This document shows positions 27,286-47,564 of a DNA stretch of 64,000 nt, one piece after another (position 1 is the first letter of the stretch; every line of letters begins with the position of its first letter). The DNA lies in NCBI RefSeq assembly GCF_044324875.1, contig NZ_CP172185.1; one strand, 5' to 3'. This DNA comes from Escherichia coli (GTDB lineage: Bacteria > Pseudomonadota > Gammaproteobacteria > Enterobacterales > Enterobacteriaceae). The notes beneath the pieces were generated by a model. It made no database searches, was not told the origin of the DNA, and worked only from the letters and a program-made list of their open reading frames with translations. A program made the position numbers and the translations under genes.

Positions 27286-28298
27286 CCAGAATATTTAAAA
27301 ATGGTGCACATTATTATCCAATAACGTTAGGCCATGAATTTAGCGGCTATATTGATGCTGTGGGATCCGGTGTTGATGATTTACATCCTGGCGATGCGGT
27401 TGCCTGTGTGCCGTTATTACCCTGTTTTACTTGTCCAGAGTGTTTGAAAGGGTTTTATTCCCAGTGCGCAAGATATGATTTTATTGGCTCGCGGCGTGAT
27501 GGTGGATTTGCTGAGTATATTGTCGTTAACCGAAAAAATGTCTTTGCTCTACCCACGGATATGCCTATTGAGGATGGGGCTTTTATTGAACCGATTACCG
27601 TTGGCCTGCATGCTTTCCATTTAGCGCAAGGTTGTGAGAATAAAAACGTTATTATTATTGGTGCCGGAACCATTGGCCTGCTGGCCATTCAGTGCGCTGT
27701 CGCGCTGGGAGCAAAGAGTGTGACGGCTATCGACATTAGCTCAGAAAAACTGGCACTGGCAAAATCTTTCGGTGCGATGCAAACATTTAACAGCCTTGAA
27801 ATGAGCGCGCCGCAAATGCAGAGCGTTTTACGCGAACTGCGTTTTAATCAGCTTATCCTCGAGACGGCTGGCGTCCCGCAAACCGTCGAACTGGCGGTAG
27901 AGATTGCCGGGCCTCATGCCCAGCTGGCGCTGGTGGGCACGTTGCATCAGGATCTGCATTTAACATCGGCAACGTTTGGCAAAATATTGCGTAAAGAGCT
28001 GACGGTTATCGGCAGTTGGATGAACTACTCCAGCCCTTGGCCGGGGCAGGAGTGGGAAACGGCGTGCCGGTTGCTGACAGAACGTAAGTTAAGCCTGGAG
28101 CCATTAATCGCTTACCGTGGAAGCTTTGAAAGCTTCGCCCAGGCGGTGCGTGACATCGCTCGTAATGCTATGCCGGGCAAAGTGTTGCTCATTCCCTGAA
28201 ACCGCGGGCCAGCGTGATGCTGGCCCGGTATTGTGCAAAACAGATCATTCACCAATGGTCCCCCTTCGTTTACACTAGCCACAATTGAATATGGGTAA

Positions 28299-29078
28299 AT
28301 GACGATGAATTCATTCGAGCGAAGGAATAAGATCATCCAATTAGTGAATGAACAGGGAACCGTGCTTGTTCAGGATCTGGCGGGAGTATTTGCTGCCTCG
28401 GAAGCGACAATCCGTGCCGATTTGCGCTTTCTCGAACAAAAAGGCGTGGTTACGCGCTTTCATGGCGGTGCGGCGAAAATAATGTCCGGTAATAGTGAAA
28501 CCGAGACCCAGGAAGTTGGGTTTAAAGAGCGATTTCAGCTCGCCAGCGCGCCAAAAAACAGAATAGCGCAGGCGGCAGTCAAAATGATCCACGAAGGGAT
28601 GACCGTTATTCTCGACAGCGGAAGTACGACAATGCTTATCGCCGAAGGATTAATGACCGCCAAAAATATCACGGTGATTACCAACAGTCTCCCGGCAGCA
28701 TTTGCCCTTTCCGAAAATAAAGACATTACTCTGGTCGTCTGTGGTGGGACCGTCCGCCATAAAACACGCTCGATGCATGGTTCCATTGCCGAGCGTTCAT
28801 TGCAGGATATTAATGCCGATTTAATGTTTGTCGGTGCTGATGGTATTGATGCGGTTAATGGTATTACGACCTTTAATGAAGGTTATTCGATTAGCGGGGC
28901 GATGGTTATAGCCGCAAATAAAGTGATTGCCGTTCTCGATTCATCGAAATTTAATCGTCGCGGTTTTAATCAGGTACTGCCAATCGAAAAAATTGACATT
29001 ATTATTACCGATGATGCCGTGTCAGAGGTGGATAAACTGGCATTGCAGAAGACACGGGTGAAATTAATTACGGTGTAG
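28299..29078 (+). CDS. gatR: DeoR-family repressor of the gat operon, apparently intact
   Basis: 259-aa uninterrupted ORF with N-terminal DeoR HTH and C-terminal sugar-binding domain. Confidence 0.85.
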   Translation: MTMNSFERRNKIIQLVNEQGTVLVQDLAGVFAASEATIRADLRFLEQKGVVTRFHGGAAKIMSGNSETETQEVGFKERFQLASAPKNRIAQAAVKMIHEGMTVILDSGSTTMLIAEGLMTAKNITVITNSLPAAFALSENKDITLVVCGGTVRHKTRSMHGSIAERSLQDINADLMFVGADGIDAVNGITTFNEGYSISGAMVIAANKVIAVLDSSKFNRRGFNQVLPIEKIDIIITDDAVSEVDKLALQKTRVKLITV

Positions 29079-29089
29079 TATTGCTCTGT

Positions 29090-29123
29090 ATGCCGGATAA
29101 AGTTTTTACACCGCATCCGGCAT
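29090..29123. repeat. REP-like palindrome / bidirectional hairpin between convergent gatR and yegS
   Basis: atgccggat ... atccggcat inverted repeat. Confidence 0.5.
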
Positions 29124-29159
29124 TACGGATTCTCCCTGGTTCAAGAGAGAATAGTGTGA

Positions 29160-30059
29160 TTAACGCAACAATGGGCAATCTGGTGGTAATCGACAACGCA
29201 ACGCCGCCGGAAGTATTTCAATATGAAAGTTTTGTCCGCTCAACGGTTCGCCATCAAGATTAAAAGTGATTTCGTGTGGGGCTTGTATATCAAACCACGA
29301 CGAAGCGCCTTCGATAATATTCGGGTTATCTTCGTCAGATTTTAATGTTGATACGAGAGCCGGAAGAATTTCATCGCCGGTAAAAATGCGCAGTTGCAGC
29401 AAGCCATCGTTAATTAACGCGTTCGGGCACAATTGCTGACCGCCACCGGCCTGACGCCCGTTACCAATACCAATGACCAGGGCGTCACCTTGCCAGTGAA
29501 AGTTTTCACCGCGGATCTCACAACGGTCCGGTTGCAGAGTATCCATGCGCATTAAGCCATGAATGATGTAAGAGACGCCACCCAGCGCGGCTTTTAATTT
29601 TTCCGGCGTTTCTGTGGTAATACGCGTCCCAAATCCGCCTGTCGCCATATTAATAAAACAGGTTTGTTTGTTGACCTGCGCCATATCTATCGCAATGGCG
29701 TCACCGGCAATTGCCAGTTTCAGCGCCTTATCCAGTGCCTCAGGAATCCTTACACTGGTGGCAAAATCATTGGCGGTTCCTAATGGCAAAATTCCTAGCG
29801 CGGGTATGTCATCCCCCTCACACTGAATCAACGCCGTAGAAACTTCATTAATGGTGCCATCGCCACCACCGGCAATCACCGTTGCGACGCCCAACTTCCG
29901 GGCCTCCTCTACATATCGTGCGGCATCGCCTTTCTCCCAGGTGACCCGCACATGGATCGTCATTCCTTCCTCACGCAACAGCATAATTGCTTCGCGCAAT
30001 GGTAAATTGTCAGTACTTTTGCCATTAAGAATCAGTAAGCTGGCGGGAAATTCTGCCAT
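29160..30059 (-). CDS. yegS: Lipid kinase YegS (DAG-kinase catalytic domain family)
   Basis: 299-aa ORF; GGDGT motif ([12 protein letters not shown]). Confidence 0.9.
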
Positions 30060-30473
30060 GATCGTATGTGCCTTTATGATTGGTCTGTAGATAGTGTAGA
30101 GCAGAAAAGAAAAGGTGGAGTCAGAACAGGATGAAAGTCGGAGGATAAAAAATCAGTTCAAGTATGGAGGATTCAGTGGTTACCACCAGGAGCTTGCAAT
30201 GGGGACAGTGAATGTTAACGGTAGCCACCGGTAAATTTCAAAAAAGAGCATATACCTAATATTCAACTAAACAGTGGCATCTTCACTATCTTATTCTAAA
30301 TATATTAAAGCCCTCATGGGGATACCTGGGCAGGGCTTCATGTTTGTAATTCCTACTTATGTAGGAAATGTTGTACAGAACATTTATTATAATCCTATTC
30401 AATTATAATAATCATGCCATTATTATATTTTAACACCAGAGCGTGTCGTTGGTATTTAATGGGGGAAGGTAAG

Positions 30474-30791
30474 ATGAAAAAGATAGCTGCTATATCATTA
30501 ATTAGTGTTTTTCTTATGTCTGGGTGTGCTGTACATAATGATGAGACAAGTATCGGTAAATTTGGTCTTGCATATAAAAGTAATATTCAGCGTAAACTCG
30601 ATAACCAATACTACACCGAAGCCGAAGCTTCTTTAGCCAGGGGCAGAATATCTGGTGCAGAAAATATAGTAAAAAATGATGCAGCTCATTTCTGTGTTAC
30701 TCAGGGCAAAAAAATGCAGATAGTTGACCTGAAGACAGAAGGTGCAGGATTACATGGCGTCGCTCGTCTGACATTCAAATGTGGAGAGTGA
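30474..30791 (+). CDS. yegR: Small lipoprotein YegR
   Basis: ORF 30414..30791; start taken at MKKIAAISLISVFLMSGC (lipobox LMSGC) with ggaagg RBS. Confidence 0.8.
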   Translation: MKKIAAISLISVFLMSGCAVHNDETSIGKFGLAYKSNIQRKLDNQYYTEAEASLARGRISGAENIVKNDAAHFCVTQGKKMQIVDLKTEGAGLHGVARLTFKCGE

Positions 30792-30961
30792 GAATATTTT
30801 TTGGTAAGCGTCAAACATGCGCGTTCTGGTTGTGCTTAGCCGGAACCTGTGCGAGCACGATGCCGTTACGTGAAAGGCATCGTGCTATGAAGGGAGATTC
30901 TATCGATGTGGTCAATGGAAGACGGTCACCTGGGATCAATCCGTCTCTATGGTTTATGCAC

Positions 30962-31048
30962 AAAAAATAAGCCCGTGTAAGGGAGATTACACAGGCTAAG
31001 GAGGTGGTTCCTGGTACAGCTAGCATTTTATGGGTTATGTTTTTCAGC
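30962..31048 (-). ncRNA. cyaR: CyaR (RyeE) Hfq-dependent sRNA
   Basis: Minus-strand sequence gctgaaaaacataacccataaaatgctagctgtaccaggaaccacctccttagcctgtgtaatctcccttacacgggcttatttttt matches CyaR as I remember it, including the terminator hairpin and U-tail. Confidence 0.9.
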
Positions 31049-31079
31049 GAAACAGATGATAACCTTAATAAATGCAGCT

Positions 31080-31101
31080 GTATGTGATCGGTTTCTAAGA
31101 A
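31080..31101 (-). promoter_or_regulatory. Probable CRP site of the cyaR promoter (centred near -41.5)
   Basis: tgtgatcggtttctaa (TGTGA half-site at 31083-31087) about 41 bp upstream of the CyaR 5' end; -10 tatcat 7 nt upstream of the start. Confidence 0.5.
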
Positions 31102-31132
31102 TTTTCCATCCGGGAAAAATAATCGAAATTAA

Positions 31133-32494
31133 TCACTTACCGTGGGGGTTACGCGTGGTTTCCCCGGAGAAATTACGCATCAGCAGCGCGTAATTTAGCT
31201 CAAGATCCTGCGGCACCGGGATCCACACAGTATAACCATCGCCCGGTGCGACCGGCATTGCTTCGCCTTTGGCGTTTTCCATGTGCTCAAGGGTAAAGTT
31301 AATGTTCCCTTGCGGCGTCATCAGCTCAAGGCTGTCGCCAACGGAGAATTTATTTTTCACCGCTACCGCCGCGAGGTCGCCCTTGCGCTCACTGGTAAAC
31401 TCACCAACAAACTGCTGGCGGTCAGAAACTGAATAACCGTATTCGTAGTTCTGATAATCGTCGTGAGTATGACGACGCAGGAAACCTTCGGTATAGCCAC
31501 GATGCGCCAGACCTTCCAGGGTTTCCAGCAGGCTGGTATCGAATGGTTTTCCCGCAGCTGCGTCATCGATAGCTTTACGGTAAACCTGCGCGGTGCGTGC
31601 GCAATAGTAGAAAGATTTGGTACGGCCTTCGATTTTCAGCGAATGCACGCCCATTTTGGTCAGGCGTTCAACATGGGCGATGGCGCGCAGATCTTTCGAG
31701 TTCATGATGTAAGTGCCGTGCTCATCTTCAAACGCGGTCATATACTCGCCCGGACGCTGGGCTTCTTCGATCATAAACACTTTGTCGGTTGGTGCGCCGA
31801 TCCCCAGCGTCGGTTCAACGTTTTGCACCGGAATCGGTTCGTACTTGTGTACGATGTTGCCGACGTCATCTTCTTTCCCTTCCTGGACGTTATACTCCCA
31901 GCGGCAGGCGTTGGTGCAGGTGCCCTGGTTCGGGTCGCGCTTGTTGATATAGCCAGAGAGCAGGCAGCGACCGGAGTAGGCCATGCACAGCGCGCCGTGA
32001 ACGAAGATTTCGATCTCCATATCTGGCACCTGATTGCGGATCTCTTCAATCTCTTCCAGTGACAGTTCGCGAGAGAGGATCACGCGGGTCAGACCCATTT
32101 GCTGCCAGAATTTCACCGTCGCCCAGTTCACGGCGTTAGCCTGTACTGAGAGATGGATCGGCATTTCAGGGAAGTGCTCGCGCACCAGCATAATCAGCCC
32201 TGGATCAGACATAATCAGCGCATCCGGCCCCATTTCCACCACCGGTTTCAGGTCACGGATAAAGGTTTTCAGCTTGGCGTTGTGCGGTGCAATGTTGACC
32301 ACGACATAAAACTTTTTCCCCAGCGCGTGGGCTTCATTGATGCCGAGCTGAAGATTTTCGTGGTTAAATTCGTTGTTGCGCACACGCAGGGAGTAACGCG
32401 GCTGGCCCGCATAAACAGCATCTGCGCCATAAGCGAAAGCGTAACGCATATTTTTCAGCGTTCCCGCCGGGGAAAGGAGTTCCGGTTTAAACAT
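31133..32494 (-). CDS. yegQ: Peptidase U32-family protein
   Basis: 453-aa ORF MFKPELLSPAGTLKNMRYAFAYGADAVYAGQPRYSLR... Confidence 0.9.
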   Translation of the reverse strand: MFKPELLSPAGTLKNMRYAFAYGADAVYAGQPRYSLRVRNNEFNHENLQLGINEAHALGKKFYVVVNIAPHNAKLKTFIRDLKPVVEMGPDALIMSDPGLIMLVREHFPEMPIHLSVQANAVNWATVKFWQQMGLTRVILSRELSLEEIEEIRNQVPDMEIEIFVHGALCMAYSGRCLLSGYINKRDPNQGTCTNACRWEYNVQEGKEDDVGNIVHKYEPIPVQNVEPTLGIGAPTDKVFMIEEAQRPGEYMTAFEDEHGTYIMNSKDLRAIAHVERLTKMGVHSLKIEGRTKSFYYCARTAQVYRKAIDDAAAGKPFDTSLLETLEGLAHRGYTEGFLRRHTHDDYQNYEYGYSVSDRQQFVGEFTSERKGDLAAVAVKNKFSVGDSLELMTPQGNINFTLEHMENAKGEAMPVAPGDGYTVWIPVPQDLELNYALLMRNFSGETTRNPHGK

Positions 32495-32695
32495 AATTCT
32501 CTCGTTCTGATGACAGGTCAGATCCGCTTCACCTGATGAAGCGGCCAGGGGAGTGCCCCCACTTTAAGGGCGGGCATTGTAGCGCAATCGTCGGGGTTGG
32601 CTCCAGTGTAATTGTGATGAGCTTTTCGATGCCTGGCGTACAATTGACATCAGAATTGAGTATATTTACGACCGTGAATGCTAAGGAGTTAAAAC

Positions 32696-33301
32696 ATGTG
32701 GATGTTAAAGAAGGGAATCACGCTGGCTCTGTTGGTTCTGTTTTCTCTGCCCGCTACTGCCGGTCTTTCGCTGGAGGAGACTGCTCGTAAGGTGATTATC
32801 GGCTTTCAGCAAAAAGATGCTCAATTAATCAACTCGTTAATTGATAAAAAAACGGGGTTGTATGTTCTCTTCCAGCGTGGCGCTTCGATGGATGTCGAAA
32901 ATTTTAAGTCAATTGATTTTAAAACGCCTGTTCCCGAGTATTTGCTGTGGCCTTCGGCAGGGGAACATATTCCGCGAGATGAAGAGTTTGATAAGAAAAC
33001 TATCCCGGAATTTGACTGTGAACGTGGCTGGAATAAGCACGGATATTTTATTAGCAGCAGCGATACACACCATAAAGTCAGCCGTAATTTGGTCTTCACG
33101 CAGATGTTTGGTTCACCGCGAAACACTATTTCTGATGCGCAGATTGCCGCAGCGCGTCGAATGGAGTACGGGGCCGTGCGTGTGGTCGCTGCGCCAGAAG
33201 GGGGTAGCGATGGACTGGTATTTTATTTAAGTCAACTTTACGGTTATGACCGTGACTGGTATCTGACGGTGGTGGATCAGATTGGTGATTGTGGGGCGTG
33301 A
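32696..33301 (+). CDS. Hypothetical secreted protein (201 aa), unknown function
   Basis: Strong RBS aaggag 7 nt upstream; predicted Sec signal peptide MWMLKKGITLALLVLFSLPATA; two Cys in mature part; not recognised as a K-12 gene. Confidence 0.6.
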   Translation: MWMLKKGITLALLVLFSLPATAGLSLEETARKVIIGFQQKDAQLINSLIDKKTGLYVLFQRGASMDVENFKSIDFKTPVPEYLLWPSAGEHIPRDEEFDKKTIPEFDCERGWNKHGYFISSSDTHHKVSRNLVFTQMFGSPRNTISDAQIAAARRMEYGAVRVVAAPEGGSDGLVFYLSQLYGYDRDWYLTVVDQIGDCGA

Positions 33302-33331
33302 TAAAGATTTATTCGCCCGCAAGCAGTGATG

Positions 33332-34732
33332 CTATTTAAAAGGTATGTAACCCCTTAATCTGTTGTGAAGTTCCGGATTGCGGGTAAAAAGCGCCTGAAG
33401 TTGCTGACGCTGAAGAGCATTCGGTTGAATGCCCGAAAGATTGAAATTGCGTTGCCATATCGCGAGCTGTTTACCTGCAAATTCTTCAGTTAGCTTGTGT
33501 TGCGATTGCAGAAGAAGAATTAAACCGTCCCATTTGTTCAAGTTATGATACAACCGACAATATGCGCAAGCATGTTTAACTGACGGTGCGTTTTCCAGCA
33601 ACTGACGTATTTCCTCGAACGTGAGCGGAACTCGACACCATACACAGATGTTAACCATAAATCGAAGCCCGGAGGCGTCCGGGTTAGCTAGTGTGGTCAG
33701 AATAATCCCTTTGACACCACCATCAGGATTGGCTTTCGCAAGAATATACATAGCGGCTAATCGCAGTGGGAATACATCCTGTGATAATCCCCATTCAGCC
33801 AGTTTTAAAATATTGGCATCATGAATGGAGTCCAGCCCGTATAAAGCTGCCCGGCGCTGTGAGGGAGTATATTCAGTCGAGGTGACAACATGACGCCAGA
33901 ATTGCGCAACATCCATGACGTCATTAAGCATGTTTTTAGCGCGTAGACGGATCAACATATTGTTATCCAGCAGTAATGCGCTGTACAGAGCCGGAGGAAT
34001 TTCTATAGCTCGGTCAGTAAGGCTAAACAACGTTGCTTGTCGAATACGCGGCCAGCGGTCTTTTAACAGACGAGTTAATACCGCTTCGCTTAACGATAAT
34101 TGTTGACGCAGCCAGTGGGTGACTGCCAGCATTCGTAAACCTTCGTCGGGCTGCTTGAGTATTAAAAGCAGCGAAGATTCATCATTAAAGTAGCCATATT
34201 CAATCAGCGTTTGTAATACTGCGCGGGAAAGTTTTTTATCAGGGCAAGTAAGCCAGCACGTTAATTGCGGGCGGTTATTTTCTTCCAGCAAGAAGCTCAG
34301 TATCTCGTTTACAAATGCACGATGATCGTAACGCTGGCATTGGAGAAGGTTACGTATCATGGGAAGATTAACCGCAAATGCCGCTGCATTCTTATCCTTC
34401 TTTAAATGACGTAACGCTATGGTTGCAGCAAGGCGAACCTCTTTTACCCAGTCATTAGCTGCAAGTAATAATTCTTCTATAGCTGCAACATCCTCTTTTT
34501 GTCCCAGACATTGCACGGCCTTTTCTCGTATATATCCATTGTGGTGATGGGTAAGCTGGCAAAGAACCAGAGTATCGTTGAGATCACAATCATGCGCTAT
34601 ATAATTGCCTGGATCGGCTATCATCGCCTGGAGTTGTTGCTGGATAAGAAATAATTCACAGTCAACAGAATTATTCATTTCGACGTTAAACAAAACCCTG
34701 CGTGTAAATAATGTACGCAATCCTTTGAGCAT
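33332..34732 (-). CDS. Hypothetical cytoplasmic protein (466 aa) with HEAT/armadillo-like repeats, unknown function
   Basis: Long ORF with recurring alpha-helical repeat motifs (IREKAVQCLGQ, VRLAATIALRHL, LRMLAVTHWL, QRRAALYGLDSI, LRLAAMYILAKA); aagga RBS; no nucleotide-binding motifs seen. Confidence 0.6.
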   Translation of the reverse strand: MLKGLRTLFTRRVLFNVEMNNSVDCELFLIQQQLQAMIADPGNYIAHDCDLNDTLVLCQLTHHHNGYIREKAVQCLGQKEDVAAIEELLLAANDWVKEVRLAATIALRHLKKDKNAAAFAVNLPMIRNLLQCQRYDHRAFVNEILSFLLEENNRPQLTCWLTCPDKKLSRAVLQTLIEYGYFNDESSLLLILKQPDEGLRMLAVTHWLRQQLSLSEAVLTRLLKDRWPRIRQATLFSLTDRAIEIPPALYSALLLDNNMLIRLRAKNMLNDVMDVAQFWRHVVTSTEYTPSQRRAALYGLDSIHDANILKLAEWGLSQDVFPLRLAAMYILAKANPDGGVKGIILTTLANPDASGLRFMVNICVWCRVPLTFEEIRQLLENAPSVKHACAYCRLYHNLNKWDGLILLLQSQHKLTEEFAGKQLAIWQRNFNLSGIQPNALQRQQLQALFTRNPELHNRLRGYIPFK

Positions 34733-34854
34733 AATTTTCCTTATCAGTTATGAGGAGAAAACTCATTTCATGATTAATAATTTCTTGAGGGATAGTAACT
34801 CTGTGGTGAGAGAAAATAAAGCCGGACGCCAACAACCCACGCCCGGCATCGTAA

Positions 34855-35187
34855 TTACGTATTGTCTTTCACCGTCTGGCTTGTGCCATTGGCTTTAACG
34901 GAGGCAATTCCGGTTTCACGAGATTGCGCGGTGGCGTACATCTGGCTGGAGCCGATAATTTGATGATTGGCGGCTTTCAGATTGAAATAGAATTTGCCGT
35001 TGCTTGCCGTTTTTTTCTCATAGCGTTCTTCTTGCGGGCTGTTGCTACGCACCGATGCGATGCCCTTTTCCGCAGAGGCTTTTGAGGTATACAGCTCGCT
35101 GGTGAGGATAGTCTCACCATTGCCCGCTTTTAGCACAAACCGGAACTGATTATCACTGCTCTTACTGAGTTCAAACCAACCAGCCAT
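34855..35187 (-). CDS. yegP: YegP (UPF0339 / DUF1508 tandem-repeat small protein)
   Basis: ORF 34855..35226; start taken at MAGWFELSKSSDNQFRFVLKAGNGE (110 aa). Confidence 0.85.
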   Translation of the reverse strand: MAGWFELSKSSDNQFRFVLKAGNGETILTSELYTSKASAEKGIASVRSNSPQEERYEKKTASNGKFYFNLKAANHQIIGSSQMYATAQSRETGIASVKANGTSQTVKDNT

Positions 35188-35366
35188 AATGACTCCTTGA
35201 TTGAAATTGCGTATCGAAAACAGCATCTAAAAGAACTGTTTACCGATTAAAGTATGAGCGATTTTCAGGCGGTTGCCAGGGCGGAGAGATAATGTCAGTT
35301 TGCTGACCATGCGCGGGATAATGTTGCCGGATGCGGCGTGAATGCCTTCTCCGGCAGGTAAAAATG

Positions 35367-36089
35367 TTAAACGATGCGGCAGGCGTCGGCTTCCCAGCGG
35401 TAACCGACGCCGTAAACGGCACGGATAAAAGACTGTTCGGCGTCGAGAGATTCCAGCTTGCGACGCAGGTTTTTAATGTGGCTGTCGATGGTGCGGTCGG
35501 TTACTACGCGGTAGTCGTCATAAAGATGATTGAGCAATTGCTCGCGGGAGAACACTTTTCCTGGTTCATGAGAGAGCGTTTTCAACAGACGAAATTCCGC
35601 AGGCGTCAGGTCAAGCATTTTACCGCGCCATGAAGCCTGAAAACGACCTTCGTCGATAATCAACGGGCTTTCGGCATCCTGTTGCTGAAGTTCGCGTTGC
35701 GGTTTGCAACGGCGCAAAATGGTTTTGACGCGCGCTACCACTTCCCGTGGGCTGTACGGTTTGCAGATGTAGTCATCTGCGCCAATTTCCAGCCCCAGCA
35801 GGCGGTCGATCTCTTCGATTTTTGCTGTCACCATCACGATCGGAATGTCAGAAAAACGACGAATCTCCCGGCACAGCGTCAGGCCATCGGTGCCAGGAAG
35901 CATAAGATCCAACAGAATCAGATCCGGTGGTGTCTGGCGTACATATGGCAGTACCTGATCGCCGTGGCTAATCAACGTTGGCGCATAGCTCGCAGCACGC
36001 AGATAATCAATGAGTAACTGCCCCAGCTTCGGTTCATCTTCCACGATCAAAATACGCGGTGTGTTTTCGTCGATTGGTAACTCGGTCAT
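35367..36089 (-). CDS. baeR: OmpR-family response regulator BaeR
   Basis: 240-aa ORF; receiver domain ([10 protein letters not shown]...D) plus winged-helix output; 4-nt overlap with baeS. Confidence 0.93.
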
Positions 36090-37489
36090 ACTTCTCTCTG
36101 TAAATCCCGTTCCAGCGGTAACTCTACTGTAATGCTTACCCCGCCAAAAGGCGAATGGGCAGCAATAATGCGACCATTATGTGCTTCAACAATGTTCAGG
36201 CAAATCGCCAGCCCCAGCCCGGAACCGCCGCTGGCTCGGTTGCGGGAACCTTCGGTGCGATAAAAACGTTCAAACAATTTTTGTAGCTGATCGTCACTGA
36301 CGCCCGGCGCGCTGTCGGCAAAGGTCAGTCGCACCGTTTTGTCGTGCTGCTCGGCAGAGATTTTCAGGCTACCGCCGCTGTCAGTGTAGCGCAGGCTGTT
36401 TTCCAGTAAGTTATTGAATAACTGCATTAAACGGTCGCGATCGCCAAATACGGTAATACTGTCTGGCAGGGAAAATTGCAGTTTCAGGCCACGGCTGGCG
36501 AATCGTTCGCGAAATGCGCCGCCCGCCACTTCCAGCAGTGGGATCAAATCTACCGGTGCTTTTTGATAGGCGAGAGCGCCTTCATCAGACATCGACAACT
36601 GATGGAGATCGTCAACCAGTTTGGTCAGTGTACCGACCTCCGCCTGTAAAGACGCCACCGTCTCCGGCGTGAATTTACGCACGCCATCCTGAATGGCTTC
36701 CAGTTCACCGCGCAGCACCGCTAATGGCGTACGCAGTTCGTGAGAAATATCGGCCATAAAATCGCGCCGCATTTGCTGGTTTTTCTCCAGCGTGCTGGCA
36801 AGCTGGTTGAAGTCTTGCGCCAGTTTGCCCAGTTCATCTTCACTGGTGGGTGTCACGCGGGTAGTGAAATCGCCCGCCGCCAGTTTGTGCGTGCCGTCCA
36901 CCAGCCGTTTGACCGGGGCCAACAGACCACGCGCCAGCAGAAAGGTGGCGAGTGCCGCGAGTAACGTAGCCAGGGCGACAATCAGCCAGCTGGTTTGCCG
37001 CTGTTGTTTATCGAAATTGATATCAGTATTGCGGGTCAGTCGCTCAACAGGGGAGGCAATCACCGCACCCACTTCCGCACCGTTGACCAGAATGGGTCGC
37101 CGTGTACCGTCAGGTGGAATCGGCGCTCGCGGACCAACCAGCACTTTGTTGTTTTGATCGATCACCCAGAACTGAGTACGCCAGCCGTGCGGAGGCATAC
37201 CCGGGCCGGGTTTATCTTCCGAATTATCGTGTTCAAATGAACGCAGGATCTGAAAGACAAAGCGATCGTTGTTGCGCAGGAAGCGCCAGTTGCCATGCTG
37301 CGCATACTGCTCGCCAAGCGCATCACTTAACAGCTGTAATCGCTGTTCATTGCCGTGTTTGATGTAATCAATAAAGCCACGCTCAAAACTGATACGCACC
37401 GCCCAGTGCATACTGATCAGCAAGACAATGCAGGTGGCGAAAATCGCCAGAAACAGTTTGCCGGTAATACCGGGTCGCCAGAACTTCAT
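36086..37489 (-). CDS. baeS: Envelope-stress sensor histidine kinase BaeS
   Basis: 467-aa ORF, two TM segments, H-box (HELRTPL), HATPase domain. Confidence 0.93.
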
Positions 37490-46419: not shown

Positions 46420-46579
46420 ATGGAGGAATTATGAAACACTGTCGGGAATCGTCTGAATGACGGGCACATTTGCGAGCACGCATCCAGTAATAACACATGA
46501 AACTATTTTATCTACGCGTTAGCGATAGACTGCTTGCATGGCGAAAGGAGGTAAGCCGACGATTTCAGCGGGACGCTGA

Positions 46580-46720
46580 AACGGGAAAGCCCCTCCCGAG
46601 GAAGGGGCCTTAAATAAGGAAAGGGTCATGATGAAGTGGATCATCATCGTGGTGCTCTTAGTGATTAGCTACCCAGCATACTAAGACTACCAGGGCGGGG
46701 GAAACCCCGCTCTACCCTCA
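46580..46720 (-). ncRNA. Putative Sib antisense sRNA, copy 1 (antitoxin of the overlapping ibs)
   Basis: Minus-strand promoter ttgaca-17-tacttt (weaker -10 than copies 2 and 3); terminator hairpin gcccct...aggggc then tttcccgttt; boundaries approximate. Confidence 0.45.
46628..46684 (+). CDS. Ibs-family small hydrophobic toxin, variant MMKWIIIVVLLVISYPAY (copy 1)
   Basis: 18-codon ORF at the same position in the repeat unit as the other two ibs genes. Confidence 0.6.
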   Translation: MMKWIIIVVLLVISYPAY

Positions 46721-46907
46721 CTCCTGAAAGTATGCCTTCACGATAAGATTGTCAATCTGCAGGCTTTGCAGTCTGCGATCCTGCCAGCAAATATTCTTTG
46801 CGAGACGTTACGCAATAATCACACTGGAAACTATTTTATCCGCAAGTCAGCGATAGACTGCATACAGGGCGAAAGGAGGTAAGTCGACGATTTCAGCGGG
46901 ACGCTGA

Positions 46908-47048
46908 AACGGGAAAGCCCCTCCCGAGGAAGGGGCCTTAAATAAGGAAAGGGTCATGATGAAGCTACTCATCATCGTGGTGCTCTTAGTCATAAGCTTC
47001 CCCGCTTACTAAGACTACCAGGGCGGGGGAAACCCCGCTCTACCCTCA
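46908..47048 (-). ncRNA. sibB: Putative Sib antisense sRNA, copy 2 (SibB-like)
   Basis: Minus-strand promoter ttgaca-17-taattt (-35 at 47078-47083, -10 at 47055-47060); terminator hairpin 46917-46936; boundaries approximate. Confidence 0.55.
46956..47012 (+). CDS. ibsB: Ibs-family small toxin MMKLLIIVVLLVISFPAY (IbsB-like)
   Basis: 18-codon ORF; matches my recollection of IbsB. Confidence 0.65.
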   Translation: MMKLLIIVVLLVISFPAY

Positions 47049-47237
47049 CTCCTGAAATTATGCCTTCACGATAAGATTGTCAATCCGCAGGCTTTGCAGT
47101 CTGCGATCCTGCCAGCAAATATTCTTTGCGAGTCGTTACGCAATAATCACAGAGGAAACTATTTTGTTCACGCGTTAGCGATAGACTGCATTCAGGGCGA
47201 AAGGAGGTAAGCCGACGATTTCAGCGGGACGCTGAAA

Positions 47238-47383
47238 CGGGAAACCCTCTCCCGGAGAAGAGGGCTTTTAATAAGGAAAGGGTTATGATGAAGCACGTCA
47301 TCATACTGGTGATACTCTTAGTGATTAGCTTCCAGGCTTACTAAGAACACCAGGGGGAGGGGGAAACCTCTCCCTAACCCTCA
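47238..47383 (-). ncRNA. sibA: Putative Sib antisense sRNA, copy 3 (SibA-like)
   Basis: Minus-strand promoter ttgaca-17-taattt (-35 at 47413-47418, -10 at 47390-47395); terminator hairpin ccctct...agaggg then tttcccgttt; boundaries approximate. Confidence 0.55.
47285..47344 (+). CDS. ibsA: Ibs-family small toxin MMKHVIILVILLVISFQAY (IbsA-like)
   Basis: 19-codon ORF. Confidence 0.65.
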   Translation: MMKHVIILVILLVISFQAY

Positions 47384-47564
47384 CTCCTGAAATTATGTCA
47401 CTCCGCCCTTAGTGTCAATCGACGGCTCTCCGTTCTTGCGAGGCGAATAGCAAAATTTTCTGCGCCGCCGGGCCTAATTCTGAAAGTTGCTTTGCCTGCT
47501 CATATTTCATTGTTGCAGTCGGTATGATACCGGACCTCAATAATTCTCTAAGAAAGGATTTCTT

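Follow-up and report, generated by a model that had tools for sequence, protein, structure and literature searches.

Translation of threonyl-tRNA synthetase in E. coli is autoregulated through the thrS operator, which mimics the anticodon arm of tRNA-Thr. A related case of tRNA likeness in mRNA is that of TadA, which edits hokB and other mRNAs at loops like that of tRNA-Arg2. Hairpins in the 5′ leader can also be merely protective, and such hairpins are common, with the ompA and papA leaders as examples. The product of trhP (yegQ) catalyses the oxygen-independent first step of the synthesis of cmo5U34, which widens decoding by six E. coli tRNAs, hydroxylating U34 of tRNAs Ala1, Leu3, Pro3, Ser1, Thr4 and Val1 (PMC6599085). 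In the literature searched, nothing published on the control of trhP expression was found. The region upstream of this gene was found to hold a conserved leader with three predicted hairpins, P1, P2 and P3. The middle one, P2, is probably a transcribed architectural helix of this leader, and P3 shares several features with the thrS operator.

The window (the whole stretch of DNA that was analysed, 64,000 nucleotides of E. coli contig NZ_CP172185.1) shows the locus in the reverse of the K-12 orientation, in the order yegS (29160-30059, minus strand), CyaR, yegQ/trhP, an island, yegP (34855-35226, minus strand) and baeR. The CyaR/RyeE sRNA is located directly downstream of yegQ at 30965-31050 on the minus strand (Rfam match of 100.7 bits, terminator at 30970-30997). 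Only about 170 bp separate it from a yegR-like ORF (30414-30791) in this strain, so the remnant of the cryptic prophage PR-X (ogrK, yegZ) found after cyaR in K-12 is absent here.

Table 1. Features of the yegQ/trhP leader and of the adjoining island, in window coordinates.
Feature	Position	Strand	Basis or remark
yegQ/trhP CDS, 453 aa, prephenate-dependent tRNA U34 hydroxylase	31133..32494	-	Function from PMC6599085
Shine-Dalgarno-like GAGAG (weak)	32499..32503	-	3 nt after P3, 4 nt before AUG; GAGA conserved in alignment
P3 hairpin, UCUGA-CCUGUCA-UCAGA, 5-bp stem and 7-nt loop	32506..32522	-	Near-invariant in Enterobacteriaceae; one nucleotide after P2
P2 hairpin, 8-bp stem (32537-32544 with 32524-32531), loop UCAGG	32524..32544	-	
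P1 hairpin, GGGG(G)-CACU-CCCC	32548..32560	-	Leader comparison
G+C-rich block GCCCGCCC, directly 3′ of the -10 hexamer	32568..32575	-	Nearly invariant columns
-10 hexamer TACAAT of predicted trhP promoter	32576..32581	-	Leader comparison
Stretch replacing the K-12-type -35 region	32586..32617	-	Derived from 3′ end of a parE/relE toxin gene
Strain-specific two-gene island	32618..34815	.	Genome comparison
Degenerate second trhP core promoter, TTTATT-17-TACTAT	34792..34820	-	yegP-side junction; HEAT-repeat gene 60 nt downstream

P2 had been picked out in an earlier note as a hairpin 30 bp upstream of the yegQ start, and the distance measured from P2 to the AUG is 29 nt. The plus-strand DNA reads ccgcttca(cctga)tgaagcgg and the minus-strand RNA CCGCUUCA-UCAGG-UGAAGCGG. 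The stem is a perfect 8 bp, and a U.G pair extends it in RNA to 9 bp with a 3-nt loop. Folded alone, P2 has a predicted energy of -12.1 kcal/mol (z = -5.5), with none of 200 shuffled sequences as stable, and the minimum-energy fold of the leader contains both P2 and P3. Perfect 8-bp hairpins gave 22 matches at approximately 14 distinct sites in the 64-kb window, compared with 7.7 ± 4.5 in Markov shuffles. A hairpin of 8 bp is not rare by itself, and the significance of P2 therefore rests on its conservation.

Of 5426 complete E. coli genomes, 5423 have the 146-bp core at 32440-32585 in which P2 lies. The hairpin is identical in K-12, whose yegP-trhP spacer measures 146 bp and has no island. 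Eighty Enterobacteriaceae trhP loci were collected and the 130 nt upstream compared, and 70 distinct leaders were aligned with plain MAFFT to assess covariation. Each of the 8 pairs of P2 has changed on both sides, with 88.6% of cells paired. Besides CCGCUUCA/UGAAGCGG, the arms take the forms UCGCCGCA/UGCGGCGA, CCGUCCCA/UGGGACGG, UCACCACA/UGUGGUGA and GCCUCAC/GUGAGGC, among others. When the three leader helices are taken jointly, 90.7% of cells pair, versus 38-58% with the 3′ partners slid, and their covariation score was reached by none of 500 shuffles. RNAalifold independently predicts P2 and P3. The compensatory changes at all 8 pairs indicate that the structure of P2, not its sequence, is conserved. 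As a helix kept by such changes at a fixed position, P2 is, on comparative grounds, a real, structure-constrained RNA element. The hairpin of the earlier note is thus borne out by its exact sequence, its stable fold and its covariation across the 70 leaders, and in other strains, with or without the island, it was neither absent nor unstructured.

Outside this set, further genera have at the P2 position a G+C-rich hairpin whose sequence is unrelated, namely Yersinia, Providencia, Pectobacterium, Morganella, Photorhabdus, Erwinia, Musicola, Sodalis, Proteus and Aeromonas, and an unrelated hairpin stands there in Mixta too. The covariance model derived from the leader alignment has a single match in the window, at 32492-32581 with 109.8 bits, and also recovers distant Enterobacterales leaders. 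An Rfam scan of 28000-37000 (E ≤ 1) detected no family at the trhP leader, reporting only CyaR and a sub-threshold naRNA4 match. The trhP leader as a whole has no description in Rfam or in the open-access literature searched. The promoter-plus-leader module is conserved from Aeromonas to E. coli, and P3 extends further to Pseudoalteromonas.

The same covariation excludes that P2 is a functionless hairpin produced by chance, for which the 64 kb offer room, as 8-bp hairpins do arise by chance over such a length. Its position in the K-12 yegP-yegQ intergenic region would also fit a terminator of the upstream gene, either yegP or the baeSR operon. However, yegP has its own hairpin and T-run at 34821-34847, and P2 lies downstream of the conserved trhP promoter. 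A terminator or a chance hairpin is thus considered very improbable. As a separate candidate, an intrinsic terminator was rejected: after P2 the minus strand reads AUCUGACC and the plus strand CCAGGGGA, with no U-tract on either strand. The terminator scan does not report P2.

The leader modules are arranged in the order sigma-70 promoter, G+C-rich start region, P1, P2, 1-nt linker, P3, weak Shine-Dalgarno and AUG. The promoter consensus, TTTAC[CT]-17-TACAAT, is of the sigma-70 type, and the -35 hexamer TTTAC[CT] was found in 69 of 81 leaders, the 17-nt spacer in 68 of 81, and the -10 hexamer TA[CT]AAT in 81 of 82. Across Enterobacteriaceae leaders the G+C-rich block has the form (G/T)CCCGCCC, and the promoter geometry suggests that it comprises the discriminator and the predicted transcription start region. 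The predicted -35/-10 pair lies 32 nt upstream of P2, and the 29 nt from P2 to the AUG leave no room for a promoter downstream of P2. No experimental yegQ/trhP transcription start, promoter or regulator was found in the literature searched, so the status of this region as a leader rests on the promoter prediction. In its G+C-rich discriminator the trhP promoter (TACAAT followed by GCCCGCCC) resembles the K-12 thrU/tufB promoter (TAGAAT followed by GCGCGC). A G+C-rich discriminator is a hallmark of stringently controlled promoters.

P1 differs in length and sequence between genera, with compensating changes (GAGGA/UCCUC, GUGG/CCAC), and its G-run could alternatively pair with an upstream CCC. 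Its formal count is weaker (83% of cells paired) because of insertions and the alignment register. The gap between P1 and P2 (32545-32547, minus strand) reads UGG here and in locus L006, and UAA in K-12. UGG removes the stop of a 10-codon K-12 ORF, MPALKVGALP, and is not conserved across genera. In the predicted fold of the UGG variant, CUGG pairs with CCGG in trhP codons 4-5 and encloses the ribosome-binding site. A leader peptide was considered and rejected, as the K-12 ORF (ATG-CCC-...-TAA, overlapping the -10 hexamer) has ATT in place of ATG in many genera; in this window the corresponding ORF has lost its stop and runs to 41 aa. Downstream of P2 the leader ends in a near-invariant box, UCUGACCUG(U/A)CAUCAGAACGAGA, followed by the AUG. 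An in-frame N-terminal extension of YegQ through P3 was also rejected, as no codon position of the box varies and no start codon is conserved.

The earlier note had offered two alternatives for P2, a regulatory structure for yegQ or a mark of the boundary of the neighbouring insertion. For the first, the comparison supports a conserved leader structure before yegQ, which would be regulatory as far as sequence analysis goes. The second does not hold, as P2 belongs to the core shared with island-free K-12 and the breakpoints are 41-73 bp further upstream. The island contains two genes. The first (32696-33301, plus strand) predicts a hypothetical protein of 201 aa whose N-terminus resembles a signal peptide and which has no Pfam match, and the second (33332-34732, minus strand) a 466-aa HEAT-repeat protein (Pfam HEAT_2 and HEAT; the annotation of strain N3 was used). 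The island is rare, with 5 genomes holding at least 80% of it and 6 holding the yegQ-side junction. K-12-type strains share homology as far as 32585/32586, directly upstream of GCGCTACAAT, and homology to strains with ParDE or PcfJ/DUF1266/DUF4034 cassettes continues to approximately 32615-32617. The island therefore joins the core at least 41 bp upstream of P2, just before the conserved -10 box, and as the core is near-universal P2 is not the island boundary.

The stretch that replaces the -35 region is common to strains with ParDE or PcfJ/DUF1266 cassettes, and its occurrence with several island types suggests successive cassette replacement at one site. Other E. coli strains carry, at this intergenic position, either a ParDE toxin-antitoxin pair or PcfJ/DUF1266/DUF4034 genes. 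At its yegP end the island starts past the terminator of yegP. The degenerate second core promoter at this junction was aligned by eye with TTTACC-17-TACAAT of K-12, and has the same spacing and CCACAG in common. The T-run of this duplicate doubles as the T-run of the yegP terminator hairpin. In Salmonella, the sequence upstream of yegQ has been described as a hotspot for islets (PMC7400221), and the island is similar to an orphan-immunity islet, SAIDI-1, found at yegQ in that genus. The hotspot thus breaks the trhP promoter between -35 and -10, not the leader, and island-bearing strains may for this reason express trhP differently.

A near-perfect 21-bp palindrome beside a known island hotspot, where three different cassettes were found in E. 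coli and for which islets have been described in Salmonella (PMC7400221), could in principle act as DNA, either as the operator of a dimeric transcription factor or as a site of recombination or attachment marking the edge of the island. However, the arms of P2 drift between genera while staying complementary, which is the opposite of operator behaviour and rules out a protein operator. P2 also lies inside the core of island-free K-12, with all junctions 41-73 bp upstream. The search for repeats found no copy of P2 at the other end of the island, hence no direct repeat flanking it, and the island includes no integrase. A role at the DNA level is consequently held to be extremely unlikely. In an informal comparison, the known operator consensuses for FNR, CRP, FadR and TyrR did not fit P2 in spacing or sequence, and these candidates were rejected.

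P3 has the predicted geometry of an anticodon arm and an anticodon-like loop, two of the features that characterise control of the thrS type. A third, that the mimic adjoins or overlaps the ribosome-binding site, is also found: in 22 taxa 11-21 nt separate the 3′ end of P3 from the start codon, and a Shine-Dalgarno-like GAGA, GGAG or GAGG begins 2-9 nt after it. The hairpin folded alone is weak (-3.4 kcal/mol). The anticodon arm of tRNA-Thr4 (thrU, anticodon UGU) is ACUGA-CUUGUAA-UCAGU, and 13 of its 17 positions are identical in E. coli P3, with the outer pair swapped. Among 15 distinct K-12 tRNA arms, tRNA-Thr4 was the best match to P3 in every taxon examined. Identity rises to 14/17 in Pectobacterium (loop CUUGUGA) and to 15/17 both in Proteus (loop CUUGAAA) and in Pseudoalteromonas HL-AS2 (ACUGG-CUUGUAA-CCAGU). 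Random hairpins with 5-bp stems and 7-nt loops, compared with the best of five substrate arms, reach 13/17 with P = 0.0023 and 15/17 with P = 1e-4, both values being post hoc. The window contains the 15-nt pattern CTGAYYTGNNNTCAG once, against an expectation of 0.01, and each trhP locus that has the pattern has it exactly once; the one other place where it was found is the thrU gene.

In Enterobacterales and Aeromonas the P3 loop is always C/U-Y-U-G-N-N-N. Its positions 34-36 read UGU, UGA or UGC, which are the anticodons of tRNAs Thr4, Ser1 and Ala1. The stem is invariant in Enterobacterales although the stems of the six substrates differ, which indicates that the constraint is not on shape alone. 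The stem covaries in Pseudoalteromonas (CCGA/UCGG, CUGG/CCAG), with 3 of 5 pairs changed on both sides and 92% of cells paired compared with 14-34% in slid controls, but sequences for this P3 alignment (A3) were picked by a pattern that restricts the stem letters and the pairing count may be flattered. The likeness to tRNA is incomplete, as positions 33 and 37, U and a purine in tRNAs, are both C in E. coli P3, and 3 of 8 Pseudoalteromonas loops are without U34 or G35 (CCCGUAA, CCAGCAC and CCAAGAC). Hairpins that loosely resemble an anticodon arm occur about once per kb per strand, so the geometry alone is no evidence. One Erwinia contig is without the 5′ half of P3. A P3-type hairpin was not found in the trhP leaders of Acinetobacter, Francisella and Neisseria, nor was a P3-type box found upstream of cmoA/cmoB or trhO in K-12.

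The trhP leader therefore compares with the thrS operator in having an anticodon-arm hairpin with a Thr-type loop (UGU in E. coli) directly upstream of the ribosome-binding site, a gene product that binds tRNA anticodon arms, and a second helix, P2, that adjoins P3. It differs in that TrhP is a tRNA U34 hydroxylase and not a synthetase, and that the mimicry is here a prediction from sequence. P3 also has C33 and C37 in E. coli, its loop is not Thr-like (UGA, UGC) in many taxa, and the loop is degenerate in some Pseudoalteromonas. With the mRNA sites of TadA it shares that a short hairpin copies a specific tRNA anticodon stem-loop (tRNA-Thr4, 13-15 of 17 positions). However, TadA sites are mostly in coding sequence and are modified, whereas P3 is a conserved leader element by the enzyme's own Shine-Dalgarno.

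We tentatively suggest that P3, with P2 as a stacked helper, may mimic an anticodon arm of the cmo5U class, closest to that of tRNA-Thr4(UGU). TrhP, or another anticodon-loop-binding factor of the pathway, would bind P3 beside the Shine-Dalgarno, and translation of trhP would be repressed when unmodified substrate tRNA is scarce. The order of P2 and P3 is the same as that of the D-arm, nucleotide 26 and the anticodon arm in tRNA. When applied to thrU, the leader covariance model places P2 on the D-arm and P3 on the anticodon arm with the same 1-nt linker, but as this alignment scores only 15 bits it is a resemblance and not evidence. If the suggestion is true, no tRNA-modification enzyme before TrhP would have been found to control its own synthesis through a tRNA mimic, and the mRNA hairpin P3 might itself be hydroxylated at U34. 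The likeness of P3 to the anticodon arm of the enzyme's own substrate, beside the ribosome-binding site, makes a link between tRNA-modification capacity and tRNA supply testable for TrhP.

If a trans-acting factor controls translation initiation here, it probably recognises P3 and not P2. As an architectural helix P2 may lock up the G/C-rich upstream leader, such that the weak P3 and the weak ribosome-binding site can fold on their own, and it may stack coaxially on P3. The linker between them is one nucleotide throughout the Enterobacteriaceae and widens to 3-8 nt in Mixta, Sodalis and Photorhabdus. Pseudoalteromonas leaders keep P3 and have no P2. This absence and the variable P2-P3 distance outside the Enterobacteriaceae indicate that P2 is accessory and not part of the core. 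Loop-loop kissing of P2 (CAGG) with P3 (CCUG) was rejected: the two loops complement each other in E. coli, but P2 loops elsewhere read CCUGG, CCCGU, CUGCGG and others, and Aeromonas and Yersinia also misfit. A CsrA-type GGA loop was rejected as well, as the P2 loop is not conserved.

That P2 can be lost in Pseudoalteromonas, and that its sequence and loop are free to vary in a stable, G+C-rich stem (-12.1 kcal/mol), would also be expected if P1 and P2 were pure mRNA stabilisers that slow 5′-end-dependent decay by RppH and RNase E, with no link to P3 and no regulatory input. Like the stem-loops of ompA-type 5′ UTRs, P1 and P2 are stable, G+C-rich, conserved in structure only, and located upstream of the ribosome-binding site. 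However, protective hairpins act at the extreme 5′ end, and P2 follows P1 and is preceded by about 30 nt (at least 23) of the predicted transcript. A stabiliser would also not need the fixed 1-nt junction that joins P2 to a near-invariant third hairpin in Enterobacteriaceae. Stabilisation without further function is for these reasons rated as unlikely, though an architectural or insulating role of P2 would be hard to tell from simple mRNA stabilisation by the present type of analysis alone.

The elemental pause consensus is G-10/Y-1/G+1, and the final G of P2 precedes a U-to-G step in the near-invariant box by 10 nt in Enterobacteriaceae. P2 could accordingly be a hairpin that stabilises a transcriptional pause, or part of a Rho-dependent attenuator, ahead of the ribosome-binding site. 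With P2 in the RNA exit channel, GCGG-AUCUGACCU followed by G (G(-10)...Y(-1)G(+1)) would halt RNA polymerase, and the pause would couple transcription to translation or give a window for Rho termination. A hairpin ending 10-11 nt upstream of the Y-to-G step is likewise found in class I pauses of the his/trp type, but those leaders differ from the one described here, which has no conserved leader peptide and in which the P2-P3 spacing is not kept outside the Enterobacteriaceae. In the available text of one report, yegQ is up more than 30-fold in a rho N340S mutant and an elemental pause sequence is listed in yegQ (PMC9160355), both of which would agree with a pause or Rho-dependent event. However, the same text gives no position for the yegQ pause or terminator, and the increase, obtained by RT-qPCR relative to wild type, could be explained by read-through from yegP or by antisense transcription from the ogrK prophage remnant of K-12. 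The available supplementary files of the 3′-end mapping study give no 3′ end for the yegQ leader, and a highly structured leader disfavours the loading of Rho. Pausing or attenuation at P2 is considered quite improbable, and the architectural helix is retained as the preferred reading.

Three further observations were made in the flanking sequence and in related loci. In several Pseudoalteromonas a gene for a 4Fe-4S dicluster ferredoxin of the YfhL family follows trhP by 2-25 nt, with ndk divergent upstream, and this ferredoxin could be an electron partner for TrhP in that genus. The sub-threshold naRNA4 match is located in the yegP-baeR gap at 35316-35356 on the minus strand (26.4 bits against a gathering score of 59.5, E = 0.2) and is probably a REP-like element. 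A tandem repeat at 46488-47397 consists of 2.8 copies of a 328-bp unit with 89% matches, and each unit holds a perfect hairpin, TTTCAGCG-GGA-CGCTGAAA, at 46563, 46891 and 47219.
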